Source: Candidatus Omnitrophota bacterium (GTDB taxonomy: Bacteria; Omnitrophota; Gorgyraeia; Gygaellales; Profunditerraquicolaceae). From it: a stretch of DNA of 64,000 nucleotides. Within the stretch, counting starts at the first letter, position 1, and the number at the start of each line of letters is the position of its first letter. The stretch is taken from assembly GCA_029561735.1 (NCBI GenBank), contig JAKQWZ010000019.1:19388-83387 (forward strand). Reading direction: 5' to 3'. Shown piece after piece: positions 11,860 through 64,000 of this stretch. The position numbers and the translations under genes are program-made. Under the pieces are notes generated by a model. It was not told where the DNA came from. It did not search any database and saw only the letters and a program-made list of their open reading frames with translations.

Positions 11860-11860
11860 A

Positions 11861-13288: not shown

Positions 13289-13304
13289 TTTATCTGGCTC
13301 CTTT

Positions 13305-29089: not shown

Positions 29090-29097
29090 TTTACCTT

Positions 29098-29134
29098 GGG
29101 GACGGTTCTGAAATACCTCACAGAAGTGTCCCCT
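29098..29134. repeat. REP hairpin element (family A), left flank of the RAYT gene
   Basis: gggacggttctgaaatacctcacagaagtgtcccct. An imperfect palindrome in which GGGACGGTTCTG pairs with CAGAAGTGTCCC. Confidence 0.6.
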
Positions 29135-29196
29135 ATTTTAAAAATTATGTTAGAAATTAACATTTGTTGCGTCTATTATCATAGGAGGTGATAGAT

Positions 29197-29673: not shown

Positions 29674-29685
29674 TAATTAGGCTAG

Positions 29686-29745
29686 AGGGGACACTTCTCA
29701 GCACAAAATCAGAACCGTCCCTAGAGTAATTTGAGAACCGTCCCT
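29686..29745. repeat. REP element (family A), right flank of the RAYT gene in inverted orientation, plus a partial 13-nt copy
   Basis: aggggacacttctcagcacaaaatcagaaccgtccct (29686-29722) and gagaaccgtccct (29733-29745). The partial copy overlaps the apgM stop codon. Confidence 0.6.
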
Positions 29746-47481: not shown

Positions 47482-50400
47482 TTATCTTATCCTACCTACA
47501 GGGACTGTCCCCGAGGAGCCATTGTTTACTTCAGGCGACGAAGGGGACTGTCCCTTACTCGGGGACACTTCTGTGAGGGATTTCAGAACCGTCCCTACTT
47601 TGCCGCGGACAAATAAATTGCAAGCAGGCGCTAATTCAACCGGCATCCGGCCCCGGCTCTCAATCCTCTGCCAATCTTGGCCAGAGCTATTAAATTTCAT
47701 CGCATCTTCAACATCAGCAATAACAGTTTCTACATATTCAAAAATACCCCGTGCCTGGCAATGAAGCAATAATGATAACTGCGGTTTGGTCAGGGGATAA
47801 CGCAAAGCCACATAATTTCCTTGTCCTGCCTGTTGGGCAGCCCAATCTACGATTTTGCACCACGTCTTTACGCGTTCATAGAAATTCTGGCAGAATGTGC
47901 TGATAGATAAATATAAGCTATTATCCGACGTGGTCAAGATTGCTCCGGCTACAGCCACAAACCTGTTGTTGTGCTCGATCAAATATACGTTCCTGTTTAA
48001 GGCGCGCATGATAAACCCTTCGCCGAGGTTCGTATCATGACCAGTAAGCGTAGTGCCCCACTGAGCCGTAGTCATGTCTGCGTATATATTAAAAGCTTCT
48101 TTTAATAATTCCAAAAACGGCAAATCTTTATCGCTGACAAATTTAATCGCAAATGCCGGATTATTAGTTTTAAAAGATAGCCACAACATCATTATCACTA
48201 TTTCGGCGATTGCGTTTTTTACCAGCCTGTCCGGATTGCTGCCAAGTATCACCAGCAGGCGGCTGGCAACCCTTTCAATAAGCAAAGGGTTATCCAGGCA
48301 AAGTTGAACTAAAGCATTTGTCAAATCATGATTAATACAGCATGGCTGCATATTGATATCAGCAGAATTAATGATCATCTGATCGATATCTTCATCAGTT
48401 GGTATAGTCAAACCATCTTTTACTTGCGATTTAGGCATGACCGAGCCCTCTTTTTCATTTTGGCGAGGGAATCCCGAGCCGCTTCCATTAGGCTTTGAGC
48501 GGCGAGGGGCTCCGCACCCCCCGTCCGCCGGCGGTTCAGGACGTTTGCCTTCTGCAGGATATGTGCCACCCAAATCTTCAATAGCTGTAGGGACTGTCCC
48601 CGCCGTGTCATTTTGCTGGGCGCTCAAAGGGGACTGTCCCTTATCCGGGGACACTTCTGTGAGAGATTTCAGAACCCTGCCTTGCCGGCAGGCAGGCGTC
48701 CCTCCTTTTATATATCCGATTTCAAAAGCATAGGTTAACAAATCAGTGTTGTTGCGCTCAAACCATCCGGATAACTCCTTGAACTCTAGCTCTATATAAT
48801 GATGCAGATACATCCTGCCGATGCTGGTATTAACATAAACGTTGTATTCAAACTGGCGCTTTGGATAACGCAACCTGTTGATCTCATCTCCGAATATTGA
48901 ATCAATATTATTCCACCAAAGATTATGGCACCCTAAAGAACAAGGATCATCGCAAGGCCGGTCTTTGCCCAGCTCATACGAAAAACTTCTACCCGCTCTA
49001 AGCATCACTATAGTAAAATCATCTTTTTGCCAGGGAATAGCCAATCGATTTTCACCGCTGACATAAAAATACCTTTGGCAAACTCTGCCCCTCCAATTTG
49101 AACGGTTAAATCTCAAATGGATGAGCGGAAATAAATTTCGCAGTAAATATTTGAAAGAGGCCGGATAGGGTATCTGTTCCCAGCAATCTACTTCTTTATA
49201 TGTAGTATCCATTAAGCCATCTCCGCCCATACTATCATCAACAAACAAAAGGTTAACAGTGCTTTGGGCTACTATCTCTGCCCATTTATCCATAAATATT
49301 AAATCCGCCTCGCTCTCATGCAGCGAAGGAAGAACTTCGATGGTTGTATCCAGATAATACTCAATTTTTCCCTCATCCAGCCACTCTTGAGCCAAGATAA
49401 ATTCTGCCTGTTTTAACGGTATTCTCCTCTGCTGCGATAACTGCGCAGCAAGCCGGTCAAACTCAAGCTTAGCCTGTTCGGGGTTTTCCAACTGCTGCCA
49501 CCATTGATCAATTGCCCAGACATACGGGACTCCGCTGCGGGCCATGCCAATGACCAATACTGATTTTTTAGTCTGCCTGCTTAAATCAATAGCTACATCA
49601 TTGACATTGCCGGCATCAGCTGCGCTGTGGGCAATCAAACCCTCCAACTGCCAGCGCCGGTAAGCGCTTCCCCGGCTAAAACGGGCTAACTTAATTTCTT
49701 CATCTAATAAATACAGCTGGCTTTTTGTTTCCTCCTGCTTTATTTCCAAACACTGCACTCCCGGGCAAGACGGAATCATTAACAACGGTTCCGGCCCTGG
49801 ATCAATACCGCGAAAAACATTGATCAGAAAATCAAATGCATCCGGATCTTGCTGCGGATAAATTTTACGGATCATGCCGGCCAATTGCTCGCCTAAACAG
49901 TATCCGATTTTGCCTTCTACTTCTTCTACTTCAATTAATTCAGTGCCTTGCGGATTAAATGCAAGGATATATTCCCGAACCCTTTTTATTGCTTCCTCTT
50001 GCGGCAATCCTACTAAAGTAGAACCAAAATTTGATCCTTGCTCATAATTATCTCCCTGCCGCACCCAGCCCGAAGCCAAAACAGCAAAACAAGTGGCAAA
50101 ACAATTATTAGTATCACTATCACACAAACCTAACGCGCATTCCAGGAAATGGCCTGCTTCATGGCAAAATGTATGTTTTTGCCAATGATCTTGCAGGCTT
50201 ATATACTTCCCATATCTGCTATGCTGGCCGTTTATCATGCAATCCGGCAGATTATTAATTTCTTTTTGTGTATCTATTACATAATCTAATGAAAACCAGG
50301 AAAACATGCCTGAAACAATTGTCATAACATAAAATATGAACCAATGATGGCTGTGGAGAACAGGATATAATAACGACAAATATAAGGATATATTAATCAG

Positions 50401-53400
50401 TTCGGCTAATGCTATGCAATTTCTCTGGCGCAACATATAATTACGCATTGAATTAATGCTATAGCCTTTTATTTTTTTGACGATTTCTGCGGCTTCCTTG
50501 GAGCCGGGATCAATAAAGCGCTTTAATAATTCTGCCAGATACGGCTTTACTTCTTGCCAATTATCTAAATTGTGATCAACCCTTACCCTTTCAACTGCTT
50601 TTTGGAAATCTACTGCCGGCGCAGGCAATGGTTTTTCAAAAAGAGAGTAATAAATTCTGACTTTATCCTGAGTAAACATATCATGGTAGAAACTGGCCGC
50701 GTGCTGTTGAACAAAGAATTCGCTCTTGCGCGCATCGCTATAACGCAAACCTAATTTTCTGCCTGCGTTTTTCAGATCTCTAACCAGCCGGGCATATTCT
50801 GTTTCTAAATATAATTTCCCTCCGGGCTTCAAAACTGCAAGAATACCGTTCAAGTTAGCGTAAAAGCTCTCCGTTGGTTTTTTTCGGGAAGTATATTTGA
50901 ATACTGCATCGTCGCCGTTTAAATTAGGGAATTGCACAATGACAAAATCCGCTGTTGAGGGTTCGATCTGCCCCTGCAGTACTCTCAAACTATCTCCGTG
51001 GAAAATATGTATATTCTTTATTCCCAGCTTATCTGCCTCAGTTTGCAATTTTTCAACCAAATATTGATCTACTTCTATCAGATAATAATCAATATCCGGA
51101 TTGTTAATCGCCCGCTGGATTGCTGCCTTGCCATTGCCAAACCCGAGCTCAATACCTATCGCCCTATCAGAACTTGTGGCTTCCTGCCCTTCAAAAAATG
51201 CCGGGTCATTGGCAAATGCGTGGCCTACACCGTAGCGTTTTTCGCTGTACTTTATGGTATAAGAATTTTCTAATTGCCTAACCTGCTCAATATCGCTGCC
51301 GGGAATCAGCACAAAAATAAAATCACCGCTGCGTAGTTCATAATATGCCTTTATTTGTGTGTTGCCGCCTAACTTGTGATAAACCTCAAAAGGATAGCGC
51401 CAGATTTTTGGCCGGGCGGTTAAAGAGCGTTTTATCCAAAGCTCGCCATCCTCATCGTCTTCTACGGAAAAAAGCAATTTATCCGCTGCTCCGGACAGAT
51501 CATTTTCATAGACTGCCAGCTCAATTGCCCCTTGCTGCCATAATTTATGCCGCGCAATCCGCACGCACATCCGGCTATCTTCGCCAGCGCCTAAACGCCA
51601 TGATGTATTGGTGAAAAATGCTCCGTCATTGGCAAATGCGTGGCCTACACCGAAACGCGGCTGTGCAAGATCAATCAATCGCTGAAGCCCAACAGGCATA
51701 CCTCTGGAAGTTTTTTCTTTTAGCCGGTAATGCATTAATAACCCGCCTAGAGTTTTGCCTGCGCATCTTTTAATCGGTACGGAAAAATCAGCCAGTTTTT
51801 CCACTGGCCTACCCAGCTCTTCTACCAATAACCTGATAAACCCTATTTGTATATCTTCCGGAACATTATCCCAGCGGTTAATTCTGCCTTTGCTTAGCTT
51901 CTTGACAAAATAATCCAGTGTCAGATTCTGGTTGAGTCCTATCCTCTCCTTAATATGAGCTAAAACATCAGCAGCGCTCTCTTTTGGATACTGCTTTCGA
52001 TAATATTTCCATAATGACATTAATGATTTATTGCCTAATGCCTTTACCTTCAAGGTAAAATCAGTGCTGCTTAATTCGCCGGCGTCTTTTTTCTTATGTT
52101 TTAAGGCAAGCTCAATAAAATATCGTTGCACATCCAAAGGCACCTGCTCCCATTTATCAAAATGCTTCTGCCTGATAAAAAATCTTATCCACTCTTCGGC
52201 GCTAACCGGATGCTCTTTGATACCTAGCACTTCTTTTATTTTTAATACCACCTCCGGGCGGGATAATTCCGGATACCTTCGGCAATAATAAGTAAGCATC
52301 CCACCCAGGCTTTTTCCCGCTAATAATTTTAATGGCGCTACAAAGTTATAAACCATCACCTGGAAAGATAATTTTCCGCGTTCTTTCGCGGCCTCTTCAA
52401 CAAATTCTCTTTGAATATCTAATGGCGCTTCCGACCAGCAATGGAGCATGCCACTCTTTACTTTTTCCACCCATTCACTAAAACTTAATCCCTGCTGCTT
52501 GATTCCTAGCTTTTTCATAATCAACCGGTTAATCTCATCAGGGGTTGCCGGCTGATGCTGACGGGCATAATAACTGAATAATCCGCTAAGCTGCCTGTTG
52601 CCTAAAATAGCGATCGGCTTGCGGTAATCCTCGCTTTTAAACTGCCCGGGCAGCTTTCCTAATTCAGCAGCTGCCAATTCAATAAATCTTTTCTGCGCTC
52701 TTTCCGGGATTTTGCGCCAAAGAGTAAATTGTCTTTTTTGAATAAAATCAGTAAATATTTTTTCCGGCATTGCCCCTATTGCTACCGGCAGGCTAACCAA
52801 ATCCTCTTGTTCTGTACCTTCTGGCTGCCTGTGATAAATCCGGACCATTGCCCGGTGAATAAAATCTTCCCAGTTATCAGGCGCTATTGCTCCTGCAGCG
52901 ATAAAATTATCCACGCAATACAATGCCCTATTAAGGCATTCGGCTAACAACTCTTCAGTTTTGCCCTCTTGGATCATCCGGTCAAGGCGGGCTAACTCTA
53001 TAATTGATTCTTTGCGCCACGGCGTTGCCTGTTGAGTAGCTTTTTCCTGCCCAAGCAATGCTCCCAGGCAAAACACCGGAGAAACGAAAAGCCCAAAGGA
53101 TGAATGATGATGGACGAGGAGCGATAGAAGGGCCAATATCAATATGCCGGCAAGCAATCCGGATTCGCCGGCTGAGCTTTGCAGCGCCTTTATAATTTTT
53201 GTTTTGGCTCTTTGCAAAGCGTTATCTATTTTTTTGACCCCGACTTTTAAAGTTTCTGCTGCTTCGGCATATGAATCGCCCATGCGCGCTTTAAGCTCAA
53301 AAGCTAGCCTCTCAATCGGCGATAAATTAGCTGCGGCTATCAATTGCCTGAGAACTTCCTGGTTAATACTATGCATAAATGCGTCTTCGGCAGGCGGATC

Positions 53401-56400
53401 AGGAAGCTGGTCGCCGATTTCTTCACTATCATCTTCAAACCTGTATCCGTTTAAAGAAAGATTATTCGGATCCCTTAAGTAGCTCTTAATAGCGCTGCGC
53501 ATAGCATTTTGAGCTGCCCCGCGTAAGTACTTCGCTAAGCTTCCCTTATTATGGTCATATCTTCCGGAGCGTAGCGCCTGATCCATCCTTTCTTCGCATA
53601 GAACAATTAATTCATCTGTTTCCAAACCCGGATAATCTCTGTGTGTTTTCACAGCCTCTATGCGGGCTATCCATCTGTGCTTTTCTAAAATATCTTCTTC
53701 ACTTTCGCCAAATCCGTTTAGCTCATTACTCCTTCTGGTAATCCGGCGCAAAATATCCCGGCGCTCTTTTTTTCTGCCTGCTTCGATAAATAAAGCCACC
53801 TCATCATTGGCTAATTGTTTTTCGGCTTGAACTAATTCTACGTCTGACAAAGCGCTTTCTGCGGGCTGATTAGCCTCTGCAGCCATCGCCTCTGCCTCCA
53901 AAGTTAAGCCGATCTGCCTGCGCACCACATAAGCCACATACTGCTTCCACATCATTTGCTGGTGTTTAGCTACTATAGCTTCCCGGCGCCTTCTTTCTAA
54001 TCGCGCTTTCTGCTCTGCTCTTTCTTGCTGCCGGGATATCCGCGCTGCTTTACTGGCTTCTTTTTGCGCCAAGCGCTCTACTTCTTTTGCCTTTTTAAAT
54101 TCCGCAACAGCATTATCTGCATCTCTGCGGATTTCCTCCTCCCATTCCCCGGGGCTTTGCGCAATAAAATCCAATCCGGTATGGGTTTCAAAAACTTGCG
54201 GTTGCATTTCTGCTTCAATTTCAAGCTTACGCACTTCCAAGCTCTTTAAAGCCCTGCCTACTCCGGATATATGCCAACCACTCTTTCTCTGCCCAGAACT
54301 GGAATAAATCCTTACCGGAGCCATGTCAGCTAAAATAGCTCTGACTTTATCTGCATCAACGCCATATTTTTCCAGCAACTTAACCAAATTTTTAGCCGCC
54401 ACATTACGCATACTGAATACCGAATCTTTAGTTTTATCCATTGCCTGCATTATGGCCGGCATATTCTGTTTATCAACAAAATATGCTTTTAGTATCGCGG
54501 TATTGTCTTTGGTGAATTTCAAGCCGTCTATCACCCAGCCTCCGGCGATAACAGCTTCCAGCTCAACAATAATCTGGCCCAAGTATTTTGGTAAATCTGC
54601 TAACCTATCTTTAGTTAAAACCGGCCCGATTATCTTTTTATCCAGCTCCGATTCCAGTATTTGGTAAACCCTGCTTTTTGCTTCACCCAAAGCCCGGGCA
54701 ACTGCTTTTACTCCGTCGCAGCGGTAAGCAGCGATATTCTGCACTCTTTCTAACTCAAAATTTGCGGCAATCTGCTCTTCAGTTAAAGCTTCCAAATAAT
54801 ACAGTTTTAAAGTTTCCCTCCACACCGGCCTCAGGCCTTTAACCGAGGCTTGCGGATTTGTTACAATCCTGATTATTTCCCGGCTTAATTCCTGATCAGT
54901 TATTACAGGAACAACTGATCCATTTTGCACCAGCCCGAACAATACAGGTAACCCTACAAGTAGGGACGGTTCTGAAATTACCTTCAAAGGTGTCCCCGAC
55001 AGGAACGCTTCTGTGAGGGAATTCAGAACCGTCCCTAAAGAGGCAACAAGCTCGCGGCCAAAGAGCAAGGCCGCCAGAGCCAGCAAGCCTACAACCACCG
55101 CAGCAATAACTCCTATACGACCCTTGCTATCTAGAAGTAGGTTATCGGCAACCGCTTTAGCTGCCCAAAATTCTTCAGCATAAAATCTTTCCAGCTCTGC
55201 TCTTTTATTGCGATAAGCCGGATTAAAAGCAGGGATATTATGCGGCGGCACTGCGGGATACCGGAAATACCCCATCAGATCATCGATCATCGGGAATACT
55301 TCACTATGAATAGTATCATCGTCTTCTAAATACATCTGCTCCTGAGCTAGCCCTATATCCTTAAAGGCAAGGCCAAAATCAGCAACGTGCATAATTTTTA
55401 GTTTACCGTCAGGCTCTCTAATAAGCCTGAAATTACCCTTATGCATATCAGAACGCGGAGCTGTTATTGTTCCGTTTCCTAAAACAGAGGTTTTCATCCT
55501 TGAGTTAATCCAACCTAAAGCGTGCAAACGCGCAAGAATGCTTAACACCTGCTCCGACACGCTCTGCGCCTGCTCAAAATCAAGCATATCCGGACGGATA
55601 TTTTCCAGCCTTTTCGCGTCCTGATATTCAAAAGCCGTGATAACCAGCGGCCCTTGCGCAGTGTAGACGATCTGCCTGCCAAAGGCGTCAATCACACAAT
55701 CGGTATTGACTAATTTAAAAATGGGCAATGTTACCCCTGCGTTAGCGCCAAAATTATTTACCAGATCAGCAGAAACATCAAAATCACTTTCCGATAAGAG
55801 ATGCCTGCCGTATTCAAACATATCCCCGGTCATTTTAAATTCCATAGCATCAGTCACAACACCTGACTGCATGATAAAGATTATCATCCTGCGGAAAGAT
55901 TCGGTTATAGGCGTCATATATACATCTCCAAATAAATGCGTGTATATACCATTATCCAAAGCGTATTGCAACGGCGGACGCGGATCTTTGGCGCTTATTT
56001 CAGGCGGATATTCCTGACGTAATTCACTGCCCAAATGGATAAGCTCGCGCAAATTCTGCATATCAATGAACAAATTCAGGATACCCGGATGTTTCTGCGC
56101 AAAACTACTAACAGCTATATCTTCTCCGGAATCAAGGAAAGTAAATTTACTGCAGGAAGTAGCGATTACAGCAATCAAACATACCGCAAGCAGGGACGGT
56201 TCTGAAATTACCTTCAAAGGTGTCCCCTCTGGTGACAGTTGTGTAAAGAAAATCAAAACCACCCCTAACAATATCACTTGCATAGGTTTTTCACTAACAG
56301 CGGTACGGATTTTACCCGATAGCCGATAAAACCAATCTTTTACTCTGGTAAATAATTCCGGCCAGCAAGAAAGTTCTTTGGCTTCTTTATGGAGAGAAAT

Positions 56401-59400
56401 AACTCTATGGAATATTTCATCGTGGCCATGGAAAACCTGATGCTGCAGCGCCCTTAATGCGTAGTGGCATTTTACGGATTCCGGGACGTTTTCCGGGGTA
56501 AAACCGTTTTCTTCCAGTTTTTGTTCGTAGAATCTCTGGTCAGTTACAAAAGCAAGGATTTCGTCTGCGGTAATTAACTCTGCGGCATTGGCTGCGTGGC
56601 CTAATTCGTGGAACTGGGCAAGCGGATTATCAAAAATACTGCTGTGTAAGCCGACTACCGGCGCACCGTCATACATCGCGGCAAAACCGGGAATATCCAG
56701 ACTACGGTCAATTTCTATCAATAAGGAACGCGGGTCTTCGGTGATATCTACAAGGATTATCTCTAAGGCGCTGTCAATATCACTGATCCCTATACGGGTA
56801 AAATCCGCAAATCTCTCCGGAGGCGCGCGTATGCCGTGGATAGTGGCTTCTTCTTTTTGCTTAGCCCCAAACCTGCGGATCATCGCCTTGATTATCACCT
56901 GATCATCCGGCAAAATCTCCAGCGACTCTATTTCTATACTCTCATATTTTCCTATAGCACCGCATTTTGGCTCAGTTTCAGCTGATTCCCGTGCAGAAAC
57001 AGGGACAGAATTATTGCTTCCGCCTCCAGACAACTTCCAAAGCGCTAATCCGGCTATTGCAATTAATCCAGCAAACGAAGTGGCAAGTGGCAAGTTGCAA
57101 GTTACAAGTGGGATGGAAAATGCTGGAGAAGCAATAAACAATAAAACTAATAGTGGTAATACAACAAATCTAAATAGCGGAGCCCAATTTATTCGGGATT
57201 TTCCCTGCTCCACAATGCCTCTTTGTTCCAATAATTTCTCGATATTCCCGTTTGCTTCAATCAAGTCTGAATGCGTTACCACCCGGGCAAGCAATTCTTC
57301 ATATAGATCCTGAGAAATAGCCCTGCCCTCCTTTGCAACTTTTAATCCCGATTCAAAGAATTCTTTTTCTTCATCAATAATCAAGTATATGAGATGTAAT
57401 TTGCGCGGAATGCCGAATATATAATGATACCAAGGATAAGCTGCAGCTTCTTTGACAATTGCACGATATTGAAAGCCTCTCATAAATAAATAGCCGCATC
57501 GGCTGAATTCTTCAATAGTCTCACCTTCAAATCCGCGGGCAAAAGATGAACCATCGCAATAATACTTTGCCAGATAGATTAAATTACGCAAAGCAATTGC
57601 TCCTAAAAGATAAAATACAATACTATAATTACAATGATATAAACAAAATACTCCCAACCCGAATAATAGAACCAATGTAAATGACTTAACGCCTATTCTA
57701 GAATCAAGCCCGGGATGGATTCTTCCAACAAGCATAATATTAAGCAGATTATATTTCCCGCCGTAATCCGCCGCGGCTGTATGCTGCCAATAATTTGTGC
57801 TTTGCGCTAATTCTTTAATTCTCTCATTCTGACTTAGTATCTTCTCTTCTATATCATTATGCTCACGCCAATTTCGTCCTCTTTCCCACCCACCCCAACT
57901 GCCGGGAGCAATGCCAAGAAAACCTACAAGATCCATTGGCCAGCCAAATAATTTATAAATAAACTTCCTTACTTGAACAGATAAGCTATTGGCCTGACAT
58001 TTAAACTTATCAGATATATCAATTCCCAGATAGCTGTAAACTCTTTTGACGTTTTTCCAACTTTGTTGATCTAGGTAATTGATATTACAAATGACAAGTT
58101 CAGTGGCGGCAATAGATACGTCTAAAATAGAAAAAATAATTTCGTCTAAACAATGCCAATGATATTCACCTATCCTTGTTGGCCATACTAATAAGGCTTC
58201 TACGATCTGATCGGGAGAAATGATATAGCCTGCCTGTCGGCGGATAACTTCTGCGGCTATTGAGAAAGTCCTGCCGACTAACTCCGGCGGGATATCTTTT
58301 GACTTAATATCTTTAAATTCTTCCTTGAGCAATTCAATTTCCCGCTTTAGCTGATTTTCGGATATCCCTTGAAGAAGTTTTTCGCGTAAAGCAAGGATAA
58401 ACTGCGCCTGTTCTTTTAAGTCTTCCGGCCAGATATATTCTGACGCGAATACTGTTCCGTCTTCAGTTACCGGCGCAACGACCTTTGGAACCGCAGAACC
58501 AATTACATTTGGCTTTTTCTGGAAAAATCCGGCAATCACTAACATTGCCAAAACAGCTAATCCAACTATTGCAATTAATTCAGCTGCGCCTGCGGGTGGA
58601 GCGTGGGGCTGGACCGATTTCCAGAACTGCTCAAGGCCGCCCGAGTAAAAACCATCCAACATGCCGGCAAAAGGAAGGACTAATAAAAACGGCATCCCAG
58701 ATTTAGCAGCCGGCACATTAGTAACTTGGGCGGCTCTTTCTGACAGCTGCTTACCCTCCTCAATTATCTGCGAGTAAAGATGCAAGGCTTGTTGCGAGTC
58801 GCGATCCAATACAAAATAATAAATGGATAATAATTCCTTATCTGTCAGATGGGCACGCCCTTTGTAGAAATACTTAGCCAATAAGCCTTCAAAATATTTT
58901 ATTTGCATATCAGTATAGCCGCTGCGGGCTTTGAATTCGTTTCGTTTTTGGCGGGCATACCTAGCTTCCTTAACTAATACACAGCTTACGTAAATAACCG
59001 ATATTGCTATCCATGTAATAGCCAAAATCACCAGCCACTCGGATAAACTTCCCGGCCAGCCAATAGCTACAAATCCTAAACAGCCCATGCCTTTCCATAA
59101 ATCATCAGGGTTGTCGCGCATCAGGCTGCGGATTGTTTTAGCAAATTCCTGGGGAGAAAAACTGAATTGCTTCCCGCTACTTTGGTTACCCCAGCCAGGC
59201 CATAATTTTGCCATCCTGCGATTAATGGTCAGATTAGCGCGGTAAAATCTCCCCTTGACTGTAGGCACACTTACACCCAGTAATCCGGCTATTTCTCTTA
59301 AATTGTAGCCTTGCATTGCCAAAGCCACTACTTCCCGGCGTTCTGACGGCAATGATCTAATAATATCCTGTATTGCTAAAACCTGCTCTGCACACGCCAT

Positions 59401-62400
59401 GTCCGAAGCAAAAGTATCAGCTTGCGCCGGAGTAAGTTCGTCATAAAGCTGAGCCTCGCTCTTAGGTGATCCCATTGCCTCATTATAAGGTAAATCAACG
59501 ACTAACGCCTCACGCCTGCGTTTTTTGACGGCGTTATAAATCAGGTTATGTATAGAGGCATAAATGATGGTTTTAAAGCTCGAGAGGCATTTGAAATTGC
59601 GGCAGCATTTTAAAAATACTACTTCTAGATCAGCCAGCTCAATTTCCAGCTCTTCCAATCTAAAGCCAAATCCGGCGGCGAAAGTAAAGGCAGTGCCCAT
59701 TAAATAGGTATTCAGGCCTTTTTTGCAGTCTTCATTGATAAACCTCTGTACTTCTTGACGCGCTGCCTCGCTCTTAAAGCCGATTTTATCGTCTTCTATC
59801 TGCACCCTAGCCAGATCCGGCCCGCCGCCGTAATTTATCGGGCCGTCATACGGAGCCACATCCGGCCTTGACCCGCCTTCGCTAGTAATAGAAGAAATTA
59901 CCTCGGAAGGATGCGTATAAAACACCTGTTCATAAATGCTGTAGCCTTTATCCAGATCAATGCTGCCAACGCGCTCCCTGAAACACAGAGGAAAGATTAT
60001 TTGCGGCTCCCCGGGCAATTTTGTCATTTGTAGAATAAAGTGCGCGTCTTTAGCCTCAACTGTCTTGATGCCAACTGCCCTGCATTGTTTATTAAGAAAA
60101 TCTATAATTCTGTCGTAATCAACGCTTGTGACAATGGCACTGTTATCAGTATTCCTGGAGTTTAATATCTTGCGCGGGTCAAAATGCAAAGAGGATATCC
60201 CGTCTACCTGCAAAATCCGATGCGCCTCTTCAAAAGCAATAACCGGATCATAAACGTAAGGCAAGGCATAAGTAGACATTACTATATGGAATGAATCATA
60301 GGCAAAAGGCAGGTTCTGACTGTCCGCGCAGACAACATGAATCCCTTTCCCGCGTAATTCTTCGCTGCGCTGCTGTGAACTAAAATTACGCAGCGTTGTG
60401 CCCACCACAAAGATCTTATCGCCGAAAACCTCTTTAATTTCTTCCAAGGCAACTGCCCGGCCGCAGCCGATATCGAGTATACGCAGTGGATTTTCAGCAG
60501 AAGCGTTGAAATATTTTATCATTGCCGAAATTATGTTATAGAAATTTACTCCGTGGATTTCGTTATATCCGTCCTCTCCGCGCACTCCCCGTAGAGTCTT
60601 CATCTTACCGGATAATTTTCCTGATTGAAATACTGCCCCCAGGCCCTCAATATATTGCTGGCTCGAATAGAATTTACGATATTCCGGGTCATTGCGGCGC
60701 CCATACTGACGCATAGCATGAACACTGCGCCAAACTTCATCTACAACAGGTTTAACCGGCTCTTCTGTTTCAGGAGCAACAATGCTTTCTTCTTTAATTA
60801 CTCCCTGCCAATAGGCAAAATTCTCTGTCTCCAAAGCCACAAACTCATCTATATCGCTTCTTAATCCTCTATTTCTTCCTGCGACAAAAGCCGGGAATAG
60901 AACCGCGTAATACTGCCGGCTATCCAGGAGGCCTGAATCTACCAAGGATTTTCCGAATTTAAAATAGGCGCAAGCTGCCTCAAGCACATCGTCATTGATA
61001 TTGGCTTCCTGCAAAAGATGTTCTACTGTCTCCCCTACGTAACAGAATGCCTTGGCATACTGATTGGCATCCATAACTAAATGCAGGAAACGCAGACTCT
61101 CTTCTTCGCGCATAAGGCATTCACCGCTAGCTATCATCAGAGGCAGATACAAAGGCTTGTCGCCTGCGGAATAAGAAAAATTGTATTCCGGAAAATCTTC
61201 ACAAATAAAAGCATTACTGTCTAAACCTGATAATTCTCCCAAGCCGCGCCTAATTATACGCTCGTGCATGCGCGTGCCAGGAAAAGATATAACTTGCGGG
61301 CTAATCGGGCCTAAGCCGCCTTCCAGTGCCGGCATAACAATACGGCTTACCCGGCGTAAAGCATCAATATCTTCCGAAGAAACAGAACCCGGATTAACCA
61401 GAATATAATTTGCATCCTGACTGCCGCGCATAAGCTCTATTACGCCCTCCGTAAGATCCTGCCTGTGTTCACTTGCTCCGTTTAATATAACCAGCCTCGT
61501 TTTTTCTTTGAAACTGCGGTCATCCACAGCCACCGCCAGATTACGAATAGTCTCAAGCACGTCCTTAAGCCGGGTGTCAATGTTGGTTAAAATAAGATAC
61601 TGAATACTGGGGATGCCCAGATGGCGCAGGCATACCACTACTTTTAAGATATCTTCAAACTTGTAACCCTTATTTTGCCGCGCCAATTCTTCGTCGGTAA
61701 ATGCATCTGTGCCGATGGCTAATCCCATCTCCGAGAATATATAGTTATTTTCGCCGTAAAGCGCATGCAATTTCTGCACAAAGTCCGTGTTGATCTCATT
61801 TTGTACTTTTCCCGCAGCATCACTGTGTTTCTCCAGAAATACATTATCGGAAGTCTGGATATGGCGCACGCGCAATTTCGCTAAACCCGGATCACTTGCC
61901 CATTTCCTTAATATCTCCAAACCGCGCTCACCGCACTCTGCCAGGAAAAAGTCATCATCTACAAAATCCACCACACAGAAATTTTCTATATCTATACCAT
62001 GAGTTTGTGCATACTCCGCAAACCTCTTCAACTCCCTTATCACTGCTTCAGGCGGCATTGCCCTCACATGCTTTCCATGCACGGCGGAACAGAAAACACA
62101 CCCACGGTTACAGCCGCGCGAAGTCATCAGCTGCAGAATAATTGGCGGCGTGTTGGTTAGATCAAGGAAAGAATAATCAAGTTCGAGGTTGGTTAACTCT
62201 TCGACACTAAGGCGATTGGGCTGGCCGCTTGCGCAGTCTATCAATACATTGCCCTGTCTGAAGATAAATCCTCCGAGTTCCAACAGCTCCGTTAATATCC
62301 GGCTGGGAACGCTGTGGCTACCCATGATCTTAAGCATTCCCGGAAAAACAATTTCTGCTTCTCCGGCAAAAACAATATTCGCCTCGGGAAGCTGGGCCGC

Positions 62401-63987
62401 GCAAATTTCAGGCGTCATAGTTGCCATCGGCCCGCCCACAGCAATAAGCAACTCTGGGAACCGCTTACGGATATGCGCTAATAATATCTGCATCTCATCA
62501 AGCCCGGCAGCATAAACAGTAAATCCGAGAAGAGACGGATTTGCTTTTTCAATAGCCGCGTCAATTTCAGTGAATAAAAACTTACCTTGATTTTTTTGTA
62601 TCCCCGCACAGGTTATTTCTGTAGGTATACCTGCTTTGCGCAAACTAGAGCCAAGATAATGGCTTGAGACTGAAATAGCACCCTGGTCCCTTCTATCACG
62701 AGAGAATACGGGATTGGAGAATAAAAGCACTTTGCTTTCTACTCCGGGCATAGCTAGATTACCGGCAACCCCTACTCTTGTTTCCTTTAACGCTTCTTTT
62801 GCTTGGTTAATATAAATCCTTTGCTCCTGCCTACTTAAATAAAGAAATTCCTGCTGCAGGCGGACGATCAAACGCGGATTATCCCATGAAATATCTTTCG
62901 CTATCTCTATAACTTCTTGTAGCGACTGAGAAGATCCGATATAAATGACACCGCCGCTTATTACCCTACTCTTAATCTCATCTTTAAAGATAACTTCCAT
63001 CGAGCGGATCAGCCTAAAATATGCCTGCGAAGGTATCTCTATCAATTCCGGATTAAAGGCAAGCCACTTGCCGGAACATCCTACCGGCTCCATAATAATT
63101 TTCCCCTCGTCATCAACCACAGGGATTCTTCTTATTGGTTCGCGGATCTCCTCACAAGCTGTGCCATCTTCTATTGCCGGCCCGCCGCCGTAATTTATCG
63201 GGCCGTCATAAGGTCCAACATCCGGCCTTGAGCCGCCTTCCGGATTATCCACAACGTAGGGGACTGTTCCTGCCTGCCGGCAGGCAGGTAAACCTCCCCT
63301 GCGGCTGTTAATAACTTCGAAATCCGGCGCGCCGGTAGGCGGCATTTGCTCCAGCACTTGCGGGCTTCCCAACTTATTGCTTATCCAGACATAATAATAA
63401 CGGATAAAACCGCAAAGCTCATAAAGATTGGCAGCAATTTCTCCCCAGCCGTAAAGATGCGCTGGCTCGTGAAATCTTTGTTTAGTATATTGAAGATTTT
63501 CCGGCAAATGCTTAAAGGCAGGGTCACAGAATATATGCGATATTCCTTCGTGGATAATTGATTGACTGACAGGCATAAACAGATACTTGATAATCAGCTT
63601 AACTTGCTCCAGCGGAGGGCCGCGCAAGCCATATTCTTTAATCATTGCTCTTAAAGTAAAAAGCCCGTTATACTGAAAATATATACTTGCGGCAAATATA
63701 GCCAAACCAATAATCCAGCCGTAGGCCAGTCCGATAAAAGATAAACTCAACAGATAAAGCGCACCTGCCAATGCCAGCGCTGCGGCAGCATTGGAAGGCA
63801 TAGATTGTGGCTGCCTACCTTGAGCCGGGTAATTTTTCAAATGGCTAAACATCAGAGAATATTTTGACCATAAGCGCAGGATAATTTTTACCGGGCCTTG
63901 GCCGCCGGATTTATATAATTTCCCGTCAATATATACTTGCCAATAAGCACCTGAATATTCTAATTCGGCTATATATTTATAATCCAC
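47482..63987 (-). CDS. Giant 5501-codon multi-module ORF. The upstream end is not closed within the window.
   Basis: 16,506 nt without a stop in the standard code. The ATG at 63985-63987 has no in-frame stop above it before the window edge. Recognisable modules, by protein position:
- N-terminal TM helices.
- B12-binding radical SAM at ~440-900 (CNRGCVFCSA).
- Class I SAM methyltransferase at ~1130-1330 (ILDIGCGRAVA).
- ECF-sigma-like sigma2+sigma4 at ~1395-1600 (REVVALAMQGYNLREIAGLLGVSVPTVKGR) followed by a TM helix.
- HELGH motif at ~2461.
- Kinase-like DMHKGN...ADFG at ~2780-2890.
- Second ECF-sigma-like module at ~3430-3600 (LSPIERLAFELKARMGDSYAEAAETLKV) followed by TM helices.
- Four tandem ~95-aa repeats at ~3780-4100.
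- TrmB-like MTase at ~4270-4420 (IGIELGFGNGK).
- HEAGH motif at ~4609.
- A C-terminal ~270-aa module.
REP palindromes are embedded in-frame. Whether it is translated as one polypeptide is unresolved. Confidence 0.6.
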   Translation of the reverse strand: MDYKYIAELEYSGAYWQVYIDGKLYKSGGQGPVKIILRLWSKYSLMFSHLKNYPAQGRQPQSMPSNAAAALALAGALYLLSLSFIGLAYGWIIGLAIFAASIYFQYNGLFTLRAMIKEYGLRGPPLEQVKLIIKYLFMPVSQSIIHEGISHIFCDPAFKHLPENLQYTKQRFHEPAHLYGWGEIAANLYELCGFIRYYYVWISNKLGSPQVLEQMPPTGAPDFEVINSRRGGLPACRQAGTVPYVVDNPEGGSRPDVGPYDGPINYGGGPAIEDGTACEEIREPIRRIPVVDDEGKIIMEPVGCSGKWLAFNPELIEIPSQAYFRLIRSMEVIFKDEIKSRVISGGVIYIGSSQSLQEVIEIAKDISWDNPRLIVRLQQEFLYLSRQEQRIYINQAKEALKETRVGVAGNLAMPGVESKVLLFSNPVFSRDRRDQGAISVSSHYLGSSLRKAGIPTEITCAGIQKNQGKFLFTEIDAAIEKANPSLLGFTVYAAGLDEMQILLAHIRKRFPELLIAVGGPMATMTPEICAAQLPEANIVFAGEAEIVFPGMLKIMGSHSVPSRILTELLELGGFIFRQGNVLIDCASGQPNRLSVEELTNLELDYSFLDLTNTPPIILQLMTSRGCNRGCVFCSAVHGKHVRAMPPEAVIRELKRFAEYAQTHGIDIENFCVVDFVDDDFFLAECGERGLEILRKWASDPGLAKLRVRHIQTSDNVFLEKHSDAAGKVQNEINTDFVQKLHALYGENNYIFSEMGLAIGTDAFTDEELARQNKGYKFEDILKVVVCLRHLGIPSIQYLILTNIDTRLKDVLETIRNLAVAVDDRSFKEKTRLVILNGASEHRQDLTEGVIELMRGSQDANYILVNPGSVSSEDIDALRRVSRIVMPALEGGLGPISPQVISFPGTRMHERIIRRGLGELSGLDSNAFICEDFPEYNFSYSAGDKPLYLPLMIASGECLMREEESLRFLHLVMDANQYAKAFCYVGETVEHLLQEANINDDVLEAACAYFKFGKSLVDSGLLDSRQYYAVLFPAFVAGRNRGLRSDIDEFVALETENFAYWQGVIKEESIVAPETEEPVKPVVDEVWRSVHAMRQYGRRNDPEYRKFYSSQQYIEGLGAVFQSGKLSGKMKTLRGVRGEDGYNEIHGVNFYNIISAMIKYFNASAENPLRILDIGCGRAVALEEIKEVFGDKIFVVGTTLRNFSSQQRSEELRGKGIHVVCADSQNLPFAYDSFHIVMSTYALPYVYDPVIAFEEAHRILQVDGISSLHFDPRKILNSRNTDNSAIVTSVDYDRIIDFLNKQCRAVGIKTVEAKDAHFILQMTKLPGEPQIIFPLCFRERVGSIDLDKGYSIYEQVFYTHPSEVISSITSEGGSRPDVAPYDGPINYGGGPDLARVQIEDDKIGFKSEAARQEVQRFINEDCKKGLNTYLMGTAFTFAAGFGFRLEELEIELADLEVVFLKCCRNFKCLSSFKTIIYASIHNLIYNAVKKRRREALVVDLPYNEAMGSPKSEAQLYDELTPAQADTFASDMACAEQVLAIQDIIRSLPSERREVVALAMQGYNLREIAGLLGVSVPTVKGRFYRANLTINRRMAKLWPGWGNQSSGKQFSFSPQEFAKTIRSLMRDNPDDLWKGMGCLGFVAIGWPGSLSEWLVILAITWIAISVIYVSCVLVKEARYARQKRNEFKARSGYTDMQIKYFEGLLAKYFYKGRAHLTDKELLSIYYFVLDRDSQQALHLYSQIIEEGKQLSERAAQVTNVPAAKSGMPFLLVLPFAGMLDGFYSGGLEQFWKSVQPHAPPAGAAELIAIVGLAVLAMLVIAGFFQKKPNVIGSAVPKVVAPVTEDGTVFASEYIWPEDLKEQAQFILALREKLLQGISENQLKREIELLKEEFKDIKSKDIPPELVGRTFSIAAEVIRRQAGYIISPDQIVEALLVWPTRIGEYHWHCLDEIIFSILDVSIAATELVICNINYLDQQSWKNVKRVYSYLGIDISDKFKCQANSLSVQVRKFIYKLFGWPMDLVGFLGIAPGSWGGWERGRNWREHNDIEEKILSQNERIKELAQSTNYWQHTAAADYGGKYNLLNIMLVGRIHPGLDSRIGVKSFTLVLLFGLGVFCLYHCNYSIVFYLLGAIALRNLIYLAKYYCDGSSFARGFEGETIEEFSRCGYLFMRGFQYRAIVKEAAAYPWYHYIFGIPRKLHLIYLIIDEEKEFFESGLKVAKEGRAISQDLYEELLARVVTHSDLIEANGNIEKLLEQRGIVEQGKSRINWAPLFRFVVLPLLVLLFIASPAFSIPLVTCNLPLATSFAGLIAIAGLALWKLSGGGSNNSVPVSARESAETEPKCGAIGKYESIEIESLEILPDDQVIIKAMIRRFGAKQKEEATIHGIRAPPERFADFTRIGISDIDSALEIILVDITEDPRSLLIEIDRSLDIPGFAAMYDGAPVVGLHSSIFDNPLAQFHELGHAANAAELITADEILAFVTDQRFYEQKLEENGFTPENVPESVKCHYALRALQHQVFHGHDEIFHRVISLHKEAKELSCWPELFTRVKDWFYRLSGKIRTAVSEKPMQVILLGVVLIFFTQLSPEGTPLKVISEPSLLAVCLIAVIATSCSKFTFLDSGEDIAVSSFAQKHPGILNLFIDMQNLRELIHLGSELRQEYPPEISAKDPRPPLQYALDNGIYTHLFGDVYMTPITESFRRMIIFIMQSGVVTDAMEFKMTGDMFEYGRHLLSESDFDVSADLVNNFGANAGVTLPIFKLVNTDCVIDAFGRQIVYTAQGPLVITAFEYQDAKRLENIRPDMLDFEQAQSVSEQVLSILARLHALGWINSRMKTSVLGNGTITAPRSDMHKGNFRLIREPDGKLKIMHVADFGLAFKDIGLAQEQMYLEDDDTIHSEVFPMIDDLMGYFRYPAVPPHNIPAFNPAYRNKRAELERFYAEEFWAAKAVADNLLLDSKGRIGVIAAVVVGLLALAALLFGRELVASLGTVLNSLTEAFLSGTPLKVISEPSLLVGLPVLFGLVQNGSVVPVITDQELSREIIRIVTNPQASVKGLRPVWRETLKLYYLEALTEEQIAANFELERVQNIAAYRCDGVKAVARALGEAKSRVYQILESELDKKIIGPVLTKDRLADLPKYLGQIIVELEAVIAGGWVIDGLKFTKDNTAILKAYFVDKQNMPAIMQAMDKTKDSVFSMRNVAAKNLVKLLEKYGVDADKVRAILADMAPVRIYSSSGQRKSGWHISGVGRALKSLEVRKLEIEAEMQPQVFETHTGLDFIAQSPGEWEEEIRRDADNAVAEFKKAKEVERLAQKEASKAARISRQQERAEQKARLERRRREAIVAKHQQMMWKQYVAYVVRRQIGLTLEAEAMAAEANQPAESALSDVELVQAEKQLANDEVALFIEAGRKKERRDILRRITRRSNELNGFGESEEDILEKHRWIARIEAVKTHRDYPGLETDELIVLCEERMDQALRSGRYDHNKGSLAKYLRGAAQNAMRSAIKSYLRDPNNLSLNGYRFEDDSEEIGDQLPDPPAEDAFMHSINQEVLRQLIAAANLSPIERLAFELKARMGDSYAEAAETLKVGVKKIDNALQRAKTKIIKALQSSAGESGLLAGILILALLSLLVHHHSSFGLFVSPVFCLGALLGQEKATQQATPWRKESIIELARLDRMIQEGKTEELLAECLNRALYCVDNFIAAGAIAPDNWEDFIHRAMVRIYHRQPEGTEQEDLVSLPVAIGAMPEKIFTDFIQKRQFTLWRKIPERAQKRFIELAAAELGKLPGQFKSEDYRKPIAILGNRQLSGLFSYYARQHQPATPDEINRLIMKKLGIKQQGLSFSEWVEKVKSGMLHCWSEAPLDIQREFVEEAAKERGKLSFQVMVYNFVAPLKLLAGKSLGGMLTYYCRRYPELSRPEVVLKIKEVLGIKEHPVSAEEWIRFFIRQKHFDKWEQVPLDVQRYFIELALKHKKKDAGELSSTDFTLKVKALGNKSLMSLWKYYRKQYPKESAADVLAHIKERIGLNQNLTLDYFVKKLSKGRINRWDNVPEDIQIGFIRLLVEELGRPVEKLADFSVPIKRCAGKTLGGLLMHYRLKEKTSRGMPVGLQRLIDLAQPRFGVGHAFANDGAFFTNTSWRLGAGEDSRMCVRIARHKLWQQGAIELAVYENDLSGAADKLLFSVEDDEDGELWIKRSLTARPKIWRYPFEVYHKLGGNTQIKAYYELRSGDFIFVLIPGSDIEQVRQLENSYTIKYSEKRYGVGHAFANDPAFFEGQEATSSDRAIGIELGFGNGKAAIQRAINNPDIDYYLIEVDQYLVEKLQTEADKLGIKNIHIFHGDSLRVLQGQIEPSTADFVIVQFPNLNGDDAVFKYTSRKKPTESFYANLNGILAVLKPGGKLYLETEYARLVRDLKNAGRKLGLRYSDARKSEFFVQQHAASFYHDMFTQDKVRIYYSLFEKPLPAPAVDFQKAVERVRVDHNLDNWQEVKPYLAELLKRFIDPGSKEAAEIVKKIKGYSINSMRNYMLRQRNCIALAELINISLYLSLLYPVLHSHHWFIFYVMTIVSGMFSWFSLDYVIDTQKEINNLPDCMINGQHSRYGKYISLQDHWQKHTFCHEAGHFLECALGLCDSDTNNCFATCFAVLASGWVRQGDNYEQGSNFGSTLVGLPQEEAIKRVREYILAFNPQGTELIEVEEVEGKIGYCLGEQLAGMIRKIYPQQDPDAFDFLINVFRGIDPGPEPLLMIPSCPGVQCLEIKQEETKSQLYLLDEEIKLARFSRGSAYRRWQLEGLIAHSAADAGNVNDVAIDLSRQTKKSVLVIGMARSGVPYVWAIDQWWQQLENPEQAKLEFDRLAAQLSQQRRIPLKQAEFILAQEWLDEGKIEYYLDTTIEVLPSLHESEADLIFMDKWAEIVAQSTVNLLFVDDSMGGDGLMDTTYKEVDCWEQIPYPASFKYLLRNLFPLIHLRFNRSNWRGRVCQRYFYVSGENRLAIPWQKDDFTIVMLRAGRSFSYELGKDRPCDDPCSLGCHNLWWNNIDSIFGDEINRLRYPKRQFEYNVYVNTSIGRMYLHHYIELEFKELSGWFERNNTDLLTYAFEIGYIKGGTPACRQGRVLKSLTEVSPDKGQSPLSAQQNDTAGTVPTAIEDLGGTYPAEGKRPEPPADGGCGAPRRSKPNGSGSGFPRQNEKEGSVMPKSQVKDGLTIPTDEDIDQMIINSADINMQPCCINHDLTNALVQLCLDNPLLIERVASRLLVILGSNPDRLVKNAIAEIVIMMLWLSFKTNNPAFAIKFVSDKDLPFLELLKEAFNIYADMTTAQWGTTLTGHDTNLGEGFIMRALNRNVYLIEHNNRFVAVAGAILTTSDNSLYLSISTFCQNFYERVKTWCKIVDWAAQQAGQGNYVALRYPLTKPQLSLLLHCQARGIFEYVETVIADVEDAMKFNSSGQDWQRIESRGRMPVELAPACNLFVRGKVGTVLKSLTEVSPSKGQSPSSPEVNNGSSGTVPVGRIR
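47501..47596. repeat. REP cluster (two family-B gggactgtcccc units plus one family-A unit) inside the 3' end of the giant ORF, immediately before the PilZ start
   Basis: gggactgtcccc (47501-47512), ggggactgtccc (47543-47554), ggggacacttctgtgagggatttcagaaccgtccct (47561-47596). Translated as VGTVLKSLTEVSPSKGQSPSSPEVNNGSSGTVP. Confidence 0.6.
48590..48705. repeat. REP cluster (B, B, A) with a nested family-C palindrome inserted into the A unit
   Basis: The cluster has the same B...B...A organisation as 47501-47596. The A unit ggggacacttctgtgagagatttcagaacc is interrupted by ctgccttgccggcaggcagg (48677-48696), then resumes with cgtccct. Confidence 0.6.
54963..55036. repeat. Family-A REP dimer (REPIN-like: forward unit, 11-nt spacer, reverse unit) in-frame in the giant ORF
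   Basis: gggacggttctgaaattaccttcaaaggtgtcccc gacaggaacgc ttctgtgagggaattcagaaccgtccct. Encodes GTVLNSLTEAFLSGTPLKVISEPSLL between two hydrophobic segments. Confidence 0.6.
56193..56266. repeat. Family-A REP unit plus a decayed partner copy in-frame in the giant ORF
   Basis: gggacggttctgaaattaccttcaaaggtgtcccc followed by the degenerate gtgtaaagaaaatcaaaaccacccct. Encodes EGTPLKVISEPSLL. Confidence 0.55.
59817..59880. repeat. 64-nt coding repeat, copy 1 (copy 2 at 63177..63240)
   Basis: ccggcccgccgccgtaatttatcgggccgtcata is identical in both copies and ~90% identity holds over 64 nt. Encodes GGSRPDV(A/G)PYDGPINYGGGP at giant-ORF residues ~1371-1390 and ~251-270. Confidence 0.7.
63177..63240. 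repeat. 64-nt coding repeat, copy 2
   Basis: See 59817..59880. This copy lies directly adjacent to the B/C element at 63258-63300. Confidence 0.7.
63258..63300. repeat. Family-B-like unit fused to a family-C palindrome in-frame in the giant ORF
   Basis: ggggactgttcc tgcctgccggcaggcagg taaacctcccct. Encodes GGLPACRQAGTVPYV. Confidence 0.5.
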
Positions 63988-64000
63988 TTCATTTTTCCAT

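Follow-up and report, generated by a model that had tools for sequence, protein, structure and literature searches.

A stretch of 64,000 nucleotides from a Candidatus Omnitrophota bacterium (contig JAKQWZ010000019.1, positions 19,388 to 83,387; hereafter the window) ends in a giant open reading frame (ORF) on the minus strand (47482..64000, 16.5 kb; listed frame 47482..63987). We consider it likely that these 16.5 kb are the 3' part of one translated Omnitrophota gene for an inner-membrane-anchored, multi-enzyme protein of the 'beads on a string' kind. In the arrangement that we propose, paired transmembrane (TM) helices would anchor the chain in the inner membrane, and the large loops between pairs would carry cofactor-dependent modules. 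Their order would be a B12-binding and radical S-adenosylmethionine (SAM) module, a class I methyltransferase, an extracytoplasmic function (ECF) sigma-like module, a possible SecA remnant, a domain with an HExxH...H signature (the H module), a kinase-like domain (the K module), more sigma-like helix-turn-helix (HTH) segments, four 94-residue repeats and a TrmB-superfamily methyltransferase, with two or three modules to which no function is assigned. An earlier note on this DNA, made from its letters alone, had picked out six motifs: a radical SAM CxxxCxxC, two methyltransferase motifs, a kinase-like segment and two zincin-like HExxH motifs. Each of the six lies where it had been placed, and chance occurrence is unlikely from composition, with about 0.014 CxxxCxxC and 0.15 HExxH motifs expected versus 1 and 3 observed. 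The 5' truncation, the TM helices (about 16), the possible SecA remnant, the four 94-residue repeats, the third HExxH and the in-frame repetitive extragenic palindromic (REP) elements described below were not in that note.

Extent, coding signal and predicted membrane architecture of the giant ORF

The ORF comprises 5501 codons from a GTG at 63987, with its stop codon at 47482-47484. Four further in-frame sense codons lead from the GTG to the window edge, with no in-frame stop between them (63988-64000), giving at least 5,505 residues inside the window. The upstream codons, W-K-N-E, together with the valine of the listed 'start', match 'PWKNEID' at about residue 340 of an orthologue from a different species (P0002; 5714 aa), which is colinear with the giant protein. 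Because the frame is open upstream and because of this match, the ORF is truncated at its 5' end by the window, and the full protein is probably longer than the part in the window by about 340 or more residues. A metagenome scan for the N-terminus of the giant protein recovered no locus.

Using a codon model trained on 28 neighbouring genes, we found that the annotated frame (frame 0) scores best in every 150-codon segment of the ORF. Four independent metagenome assemblies (L001, L002, L003 and L005) contain the part from nt 56618 to the stop, at 98-99.7% identity. Over the C-terminal ~3,000 codons, the L002 sequence differs from the window by 136 single-nucleotide polymorphisms (SNPs), 73 of them synonymous and 63 non-synonymous. 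Random change would be expected to make roughly three quarters of them non-synonymous, and thus this ratio suggests purifying selection on the C-terminal ~3,000 codons. In L002 the ORF also stays open across the in-frame replacement of about 290 residues. We conclude from these comparisons of sequence that the giant ORF is real coding sequence under selection, not an artefact.

Hydrophobic, uncharged stretches occur at residues 59-112, 1651-1672, 1804-1823, 2102-2133, 2274-2317, 2568-2613, 2958-3030, 3609-3647 and 4530-4567, making up about 16 TM helices arranged as pairs. Because pairing returns the chain to the same side of the membrane, and because the modules need SAM, ATP, Fe-S or DNA, we infer that all the large modules are cytoplasmic, as loops of one membrane-tethered chain.

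Enzyme-like and sigma-like modules

Pfam hits were judged against gathering scores, and isolated sub-segments were scanned to E<=10. Most of the giant protein's length has no Pfam match, but five distinct Pfam families score above cutoff in it, to which our searches add two new domain families.

The N-terminal-most of the recognizable enzymes starts with a B12-binding domain (62341..62661, minus strand, residues 443-549), which matches PF02310 at 35.3 bits (gathering cutoff 32.1) and aligns to L004, a stand-alone 806-aa Omnitrophota B12-radical SAM protein, and to P0001. The radical SAM core follows (61288..62145, minus strand, residues ~615-900) and holds the sole CxxxCxxC motif of the giant protein, CNRGCVFC (residues 626-633, nt 62089-62112). 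Radical_SAM PF04055 matches at 35.6 bits against a cutoff of 29.5, covering only model positions 3-44 (residues 622-659), and TIGR04072 also matches residues 755-851. The whole region aligns at 30% identity over about 350 residues to L004, which itself covers model positions 2-162 of 166, and the two proteins have TSRGCxxxCxFC, DFVDDDFFL and IGxDxFTDEEL..KGY in common. Because the rest of the core aligns to a complete stand-alone protein, the short Pfam match is not a mere fragment, and by this alignment a complete B12-binding and radical SAM core is present, as the earlier note had supposed.

The module reaches no curated functional family in NCBIfam (TIGR04072, ApyD, rSAM_ocin_1, HpnR, BchE and others); its best curated score is 51.8 bits for TIGR04072, with a cutoff of 360, and ApyD scores 40 with a cutoff of 750. 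A word-indexed search of the region gave a single weak match, phmmer and profile searches of the segment against PDB sequences gave nothing useful, and the only match in GTDB was the Omnitrophota metagenome-assembled genome (MAG) that encodes L004. The module shares with class B radical SAM methyltransferases the order of a B12-binding domain N-terminal to a CxxxCxxC radical SAM core, and both parts exceed their Pfam gathering scores; unlike these enzymes, it is embedded in a membrane protein, and it is at most 30% identical to its nearest relatives. The class I SAM methyltransferase that had been read next to it (60196..60477, minus strand, residues 1171-1264, motif I ILDIGCGRA) is borne out by a Methyltransf_11 PF08241 match of 44.7 bits, with a cutoff of 21.2.

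Sigma modules, which the earlier note had also brought in, are present as two copies whose Sigma70_r4_2 matches exceed the cutoff of 25.7 bits. Module 1 (59218..59613, minus strand, residues 1459-1590) scores 36.6-41.1 bits over residues 1538-1584 and is followed by the TM helix at 1651-1672; module 2 (53182..53700, minus strand, residues 3430-3602) scores 28.7 bits over residues ~3553-3598 and is followed by the TM pair at 3609-3647. TIGR02937 falls just under its cutoff of 42.9 for both, with 38.2 bits for module 1 and 41.6 bits for module 2, in the latter case spanning model positions 3-165 of 165. Further sigma-like HTH segments lie around residues 3030-3250. Both modules thus resemble ECF sigma-70 factors in matching the region 4 (and region 2) profiles, but such factors are free-standing, soluble proteins of about 200 aa, whereas these modules are internal, with TM helices after each.

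The TrmB-superfamily methyltransferase (50776..51162, minus strand, residues 4276-4404) matches Methyltransf_4 PF02390 at 53.8 bits, with a cutoff of 24, over model positions 3-125 of 173. The superfamily assignment made from the letters alone therefore holds, but the equivalog level does not, as TIGR00091 scores 47.1 (cutoff 112.65) and PRK00121 21.7 (cutoff 132). The module shares with TrmB the PF02390 match, the GxGxG motif and the acidic residue of strand 2 (IELGFGNG...LIEVD); it differs in its partial model match, its sub-equivalog score and in not being a stand-alone protein. Just upstream of the TrmB-like domain, the copies of a 44-nt direct repeat (89% identity, 51194-51237 and 51614-51657, encoding 'R[YF]GVGHAFAND.AFF') bracket a module of about 120 aa.

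The segment at 51718..52755 (minus strand, residues 3745-4090) consists of four tandem copies of a repeat about 94 aa long, with 26-36% identity among copies. P0002 has these repeats too, at a different position. A possible degenerate remnant of the SecA N-terminal region lies at 57784..58419 (minus strand, residues ~1857-2068). It gave two weak, colinear BLASTP segments to E. coli SecA and no match among PDB sequences. Toward the C-terminus, the module at 48697-49752 (residues ~4746-5097) shows by eye a phosphoribosyltransferase-like pattern (VLVIGMARSG ... LLFVDDSMGGDG), and it has no Pfam match. Synonymous SNPs are in excess across it, and the last, C-terminal module (47608..48585, minus strand, residues ~5135-5460), which lies between two direct REP copies, also falls in the C-terminal stretch that has this excess.

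The two new domain families came from an index-free HMMER search with residues 2320-2960 against 1.84 billion representatives, which returned 121 proteins splitting into the K and H families; a word-indexed search of residues 2250-3020 returned nothing. Both families are described in no database. The K family numbers 107 proteins that hold 112 domains, at most four in any one protein; 41 of these proteins are at least 2000 aa long. The K module itself (55153..56145, minus strand, residues 2615-2945) carries the DMHKGN...DFG segment at residues 2847-2872. Across 31 K sequences, N2852 and the DFG aspartate D2870 are invariant and D2847 is nearly so, and the spacing D-x4-N...D(FG) (D2847-x-H-x-x-N2852) is that of kinase catalytic loops.

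An AlphaFold2 (AF2) model of the K module is confident (pLDDT 90.5, pTM 0.89), and Foldseek against the PDB gave 53 matches at E<=1e-3. The best 50 of the 53 are all protein kinases, among them PINK1, Rio2, ERK7, haspin, PKR and YabT, with a best E of 4.4e-5 and TM-scores of only 0.3-0.45. The K segment itself had no Pfam or NCBIfam hit at E<=10 (Pkinase, APH, ABC1, RIO, Kdo), and a profile of the K family found nothing among PDB sequences. The model and the conserved residues support the earlier kinase-like assignment at the level of fold and catalytic residues, but not at that of any known kinase family. Like members of the protein kinase-like superfamily (Rio2, PINK1, haspin and YabT being nearest), it is bilobal in the model and keeps the catalytic-loop D-x4-N and the DFG aspartate; unlike them, it has two motifs specific to its family, ESFRR and DGKRL, and an inserted beta-hairpin ahead of the catalytic loop.

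The H family comprises 17 proteins with 23 domains, at most three of them in one protein. In the H module (56353..56997, minus strand, residues 2331-2545), the HELGH motif spans residues 2460-2464 (nt 56596-56610), and across 17 H sequences a G-K pair, H2460-E2461-x-x-H2464, H2508 and Q2515 are invariant. In the confident AF2 model (pLDDT 85.6), three strands and a helix precede the helix that bears HExxH, and H2508 is on a later one; this order of strands and helices is reminiscent of minimal zincins. The module had no match in the PDB or BFVD by Foldseek, among PDB sequences by profile or in Pfam, and the HELGH segment had no Pfam or NCBIfam hit at E<=10. Thus, the H module is like zincin metallopeptidases in having HExxH on a helix and a further invariant histidine 44 residues downstream, but it matches no peptidase in fold, profile or Pfam family, and a third ligand and metal binding are putative. 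By conservation, HELGH is a real family signature, with membership of the zincins unproven.

The other motif that had been called zincin-like, HEAGH (residues 4609-4613, nt 50149-50163), fares less well: it is a lone motif in a dispensable cassette, searches with its segment found no homologue and no Pfam or NCBIfam hit at E<=10, and it is absent from strain L002, which is 99.7% identical elsewhere. We rejected the idea that HEAGH is a diverged copy of the H module after comparison with the H family. A third motif, HEPAH (residues 173-177, window 63457-63471), lies just after the first TM pair and is conserved in P0002. We also rejected a general bracketing of K and H domains by TM stretches, such bracketing being lineage-specific.

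In-frame REP elements and exchangeable cassettes

Four blocks of the giant protein recur in the orthologue P0002, namely the N-terminal TM region (54% identity), the H module (66%), the K module (66%) and the sigma region (50%). By Pfam, it too ends in a TrmB-like domain, it lacks the B12-radical SAM module, and it carries other enzymes instead: a CheR-type methyltransferase, a methyltransferase resembling PrmA that lies between H and K, and, between K and the sigma region, a HAD hydrolase. Variation of this kind also occurs between strains. A cassette at 49753..50616 (minus strand, residues ~4458-4745), which holds a TM pair and HEAGH, is variable: comparison of L002 5994-6818 with window 49069-50625 shows about 290 residues replaced in frame by about 50. 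The cassette set of P0002 and the replacement of the HEAGH cassette in L002 together show a conserved scaffold with exchangeable modules, and for that reason the inventory of enzymes does not look like one fixed pathway, such as the making of a ribosomally synthesized and post-translationally modified peptide (RiPP) or an antibiotic.

The window also contains a REPtron (29075..29745, plus strand), in which a gene for a REP-associated tyrosine transposase (RAYT; 29188..29673; Y1_Tnp PF01797, 67.3 bits) is flanked by inverted REPs at 29075-29134 and 29686-29745. This gene, a rare plus-strand gene in the window, lies 18 kb from the giant ORF. A REP 17-mer has 11 matches in the window, with 0.21 expected, and all four REP loci other than those of the REPtron lie in frame inside the giant ORF (47541-47600, 48627-48683, 54957-55038 and 56187-56268). 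The REP copy at 29099-29133 and the intragenic one at 47561-47595 are 97% complementary. Inside the giant ORF the copies start with GTAG and read AAGTAGGGACGG, translating to 'GTVLKSLTEVSP..' or 'SPEGTPLKVISEP..', whereas those flanking RAYT do not read GTAG. A metagenome search with a REP 35-mer returned only the same locus.

Two of the loci are doublets of inverted REPs (REPINs), and each supplies the loop of one of the two TM pairs on either side of the K module. The intact REPIN (54957..55038) is in frame and lies in the loop between the TM helices at 2958-2977 and 3007-3030; its copy at 54961-55037 is predicted to fold into a hairpin whose outer stem has 16 bp (dG -23.6 kcal/mol, z -6.2). 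The degraded REPIN (56187..56268) is translated in frame as 'SPEGTPLKVISEPSLL' in the loop of the TM pair at residues 2568-2613. The other two loci sit within composite REP elements. One, at 48582..48705, contains the REP locus 48627-48683 and is in frame as 'PACRQGRVLKSLTEVSPDKGQSP...GTVPT'; the other, at 47493..47600, contains the REP locus 47541-47600 and encodes the last ~35 residues of the giant protein. A 64-nt direct repeat with 92% identity between copies (63177..63240 and 59817..59880, encoding 'EGGSRPDVGPYDGPINYGGGP') brackets the radical SAM and methyltransferase block, and P0002 has two copies of its own version of it.

P0002 also bears its own version of the REP-coded peptide at the two REPIN-bearing boundaries of the K module, and its extra modules sit just N-terminal to REP-coded TM loops. 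Its two REP-peptide copies are closer to each other than to those of the giant ORF. In L001 and L003, the terminal REP has been overwritten with the upstream copy's sequence. Both observations point to concerted evolution of the REP copies. We rejected a reading of L003 as a deletion of the C-terminal module between REPs: its terminal REP carries the upstream copy's sequence, and the contig breaks in the repeat. Separately, in L001 1-130 the end of the C-terminal module runs into a REP and from there into the start of that module again; a tandem duplication, the junction of an excised circle or a loop in the assembly at the repeat could each produce this.

REPIN/RAYT systems, for which Bertels and Rainey (2011) are reportedly the source, offer the closest parallel. 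The Y1 transposase flanked by inverted REPs, the GTAG-starting intragenic copies and the REPIN hairpin are all alike. REPs are usually extragenic, however, whereas here every copy in the window outside the REPtron is inside one giant ORF, and the giant's copies lie at module boundaries, encode TM-pair loops and recur at the same boundaries in the orthologue. Intragenic, in-frame REPs have been documented in other bacteria (Di Nocera et al. 2013, PMC3733652) and are not new in themselves; their association with the module boundaries of a giant gene is worth testing. We hypothesized that REPs and REPINs mobilized or homogenized by RAYT, along with short repeats, serve as in-frame joints for the insertion, loss and swapping of cassettes, their products being domesticated as TM-hairpin loops. 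This idea is speculative, and we regard it as unlikely as it stands, but if true it would provide a concrete mechanism for building and diversifying multi-enzyme giant proteins.

Genomic context, alternative readings and relation to known giants

Among the best 120 matches listed for MnmG, every named one came from a Candidatus Omnitrophica or Omnitrophota MAG (67-71% identity), most of the listed matches being nameless. On these protein matches, the host is an Omnitrophota bacterium. Nearly every substantial ORF in the window is on the minus strand, a 24 kb megablast against phage gave no match, a tRNA scan found none, and the window is a segment of bacterial chromosome. The giant ORF has housekeeping neighbours (PilZ, a sugar ABC transporter, glycoside hydrolase family 2 (GH2) and ROK). 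PADLOC gave only generic methyltransferase and B12 similarity, and on that outcome we rejected a defence system.

Elsewhere in the window, a cluster at 6737-16579 resembles a membrane-bound [NiFe] hydrogenase or Mrp-type complex, with Complex1_49kDa/NiFeSe, NADHdh, three Proton_antipo_M subunits and a HycI maturation protease. Three adjacent ORFs at 38716-43611 (785, 415 and 450 aa), lie by the sugar ABC transporter; the first and third have weak or partial matches to the GH2 TIM-barrel, and the second has no such match. DNA repeats internal to these ORFs and shared among them (38969-39031 with 41426-41488; 40442-40491 with 40994-41043) suggest paralogous duplication.

Giant genes are already known from this phylum. 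Full-length Omnitrophota giants have numerous TM regions, most with divergent SecA DEAD domains, and their domains are highly divergent, with Radical_SAM in the 20 most frequent (West-Roberts et al. 2023, bioRxiv 10.1101/2023.11.21.568195). A 'multi-enzyme' class with recurring PF08241, PF04055, PF13419 and PF07517 has been described, for which an inner-membrane-anchored, cytoplasmic reading is favoured (Nielsen & Lui 2026, bioRxiv 10.64898/2026.06.07.730766). Our giant protein is like these multi-enzyme or Archaeovorin-type giants in its host, its many TM helices and the divergent enzyme domains that tile one chain, in having PF08241 and PF04055 (with the PF13419 HAD in the orthologue), in its large Pfam-dark stretches and in the TM-anchored, cytoplasmic reading that it favours. 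A divergent SecA_DEAD piece is a possible further likeness, its signal being below threshold. It differs in its embedded ECF sigma-like modules, its REP/REPIN-coded TM loops and its strain-level cassette replacement; the word 'sigma' occurs in neither preprint. By its domains, the protein fits as a smaller member of the membrane-anchored multi-enzyme giants already reported from Omnitrophota.

Several points weigh against reading the ORF as a gene for a membrane-anchored enzyme platform. The topology rests on a simple hydrophobicity scan, and the K and H domains of other proteins are mostly without flanking TM stretches. The mean codon score is 0.26 per codon in the giant ORF compared with 0.34 in its neighbours, and codon bias is lowest at residues ~1950-2175. 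SecA_DEAD PF07517 scores only 12-15 bits (E 0.011-0.09, residues 1857-1991) against a cutoff of 24.6, and by eye no Walker A or B motif is visible in the piece. The class I methyltransferase is, by eye, without the usual acidic residue after strand 2, reading VVGTTL, and the TrmB-like module reads FPNLN (FPNLNGDD) in the place of FPDPW, which we take to be the canonical TrmB motif. The SecA-like, TrmB-like and methyltransferase modules all look degraded by eye, and some may be inactive. The evidence for a role of REPs in shuffling is correlative and comes from two species and a few strains. Finally, with at least 5.5 kaa, the protein is small beside catalogues of giants that start at >=10,000 aa (Nielsen & Lui 2026) or >30,000 aa (West-Roberts et al. 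2023).

Degenerate-looking motifs in these three modules would also suit a decaying accretion, that is, a largely functionless string of captured gene fragments, most of its modules inactive, kept open by weak selection or a rarity of stops. The lack of Pfam matches over most of the length, codon bias weaker than that of the neighbours, the tolerance of REPs inside the ORF and the gain and loss of cassettes between strains and species agree with such decay. However, 5,501 stop-free codons at 44% GC cannot be chance, the C-terminal part has an excess of synonymous SNPs, the key H and K residues are invariant across distant relatives with both folds confidently modelled, and the scaffold is 50-66% identical in the orthologue; we find decay quite improbable. 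An artefact of assembly or annotation, whether a chimeric contig or fused genes, deserves next to no weight. REPs do break contigs (L001 and L003 start inside one), and the first 130 nt of L001 contain an odd join, but four other assemblies match colinearly (98-99.7% identity) along the final 9 kb, a colinear orthologue exists in a different species and the coding signal is continuous.

Other readings accept a functional protein but assign it a different fate or task. Its product might be a polyprotein whose own HExxH modules perhaps cut it into free enzymes and sigma factors that can be released; this would resemble the regulated proteolysis of membrane-tethered sigma/anti-sigma pairs. TM helices after each sigma-like module, the invariant HExxH...H domain and the conserved HEPAH by the first TM pair would fit, and self-cleavage has been raised for peptidase-bearing giants (West-Roberts et al. 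2023). The H module, however, has no detectable link to a peptidase fold or family, and the repeated linker peptides are explained by DNA repeats, so that we regard wholesale cleavage as unlikely; it is compatible with a tethered platform rather than exclusive of it, and the platform may possibly be processed. A surface or exported effector, with most modules extracellular and acting on prey or host cells as for Archaeovorin-type giants, would suit the many TM segments, and most domains of Omnitrophota giants are predicted to be extracellular and have been linked to a predatory lifestyle (West-Roberts et al. 2023). But the modules we recognize need SAM, ATP, Fe-S/B12 or DNA and RNA polymerase, the paired helices return the chain to the same side, and Pfam scans detected no adhesin, dockerin or glycoside hydrolase domain, which makes this account very unlikely. 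Less probable still is the function that the earlier note had put forward, RiPP or antibiotic tailoring or dedicated RNA modification by a megaenzyme with its own regulators. B12-radical SAM and methyltransferase domains are indeed there, with weak, sub-threshold similarity to ApyD, rSAM_ocin_1 and TrmB. Yet all curated family scores are far under their cutoffs, the neighbours are PilZ and sugar-uptake genes, with neither a precursor peptide nor a transporter/peptidase pair nor another biosynthetic gene nearby, and the PADLOC similarities were generic; the radical SAM cassette is missing from the orthologue and hence is not the core of a system.

We therefore return to the inner-membrane-anchored platform as the reading we prefer. 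Such a platform would modify macromolecules, by methylation of protein or RNA and by phosphorylation, and its tethered sigma-like modules would bind DNA or RNA polymerase. A conserved scaffold, made of the N-terminal TM region, H, K, the sigma region, the repeats and the TrmB-like domain, carries exchangeable enzyme cassettes, and the repeats at several boundaries (GTAG-type REPs and REPINs and the 64-nt direct repeat) are probably substrates for in-frame recombination. The activity of the modules, the role of the repeats in shuffling and the physiological function are what we infer from this architecture.

The case shows that giants such as this one combine a conserved membrane scaffold with exchangeable, highly divergent cassettes, so that their enzyme inventory is not a fixed pathway. 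It also defines two recurrent domain families, one atypical kinase-like and one with an HExxH...H signature, that occur in many long metagenomic proteins. A link between REP/RAYT elements and module boundaries, should it hold in complete Omnitrophota genomes generally, would account for the assembly of these very long genes.

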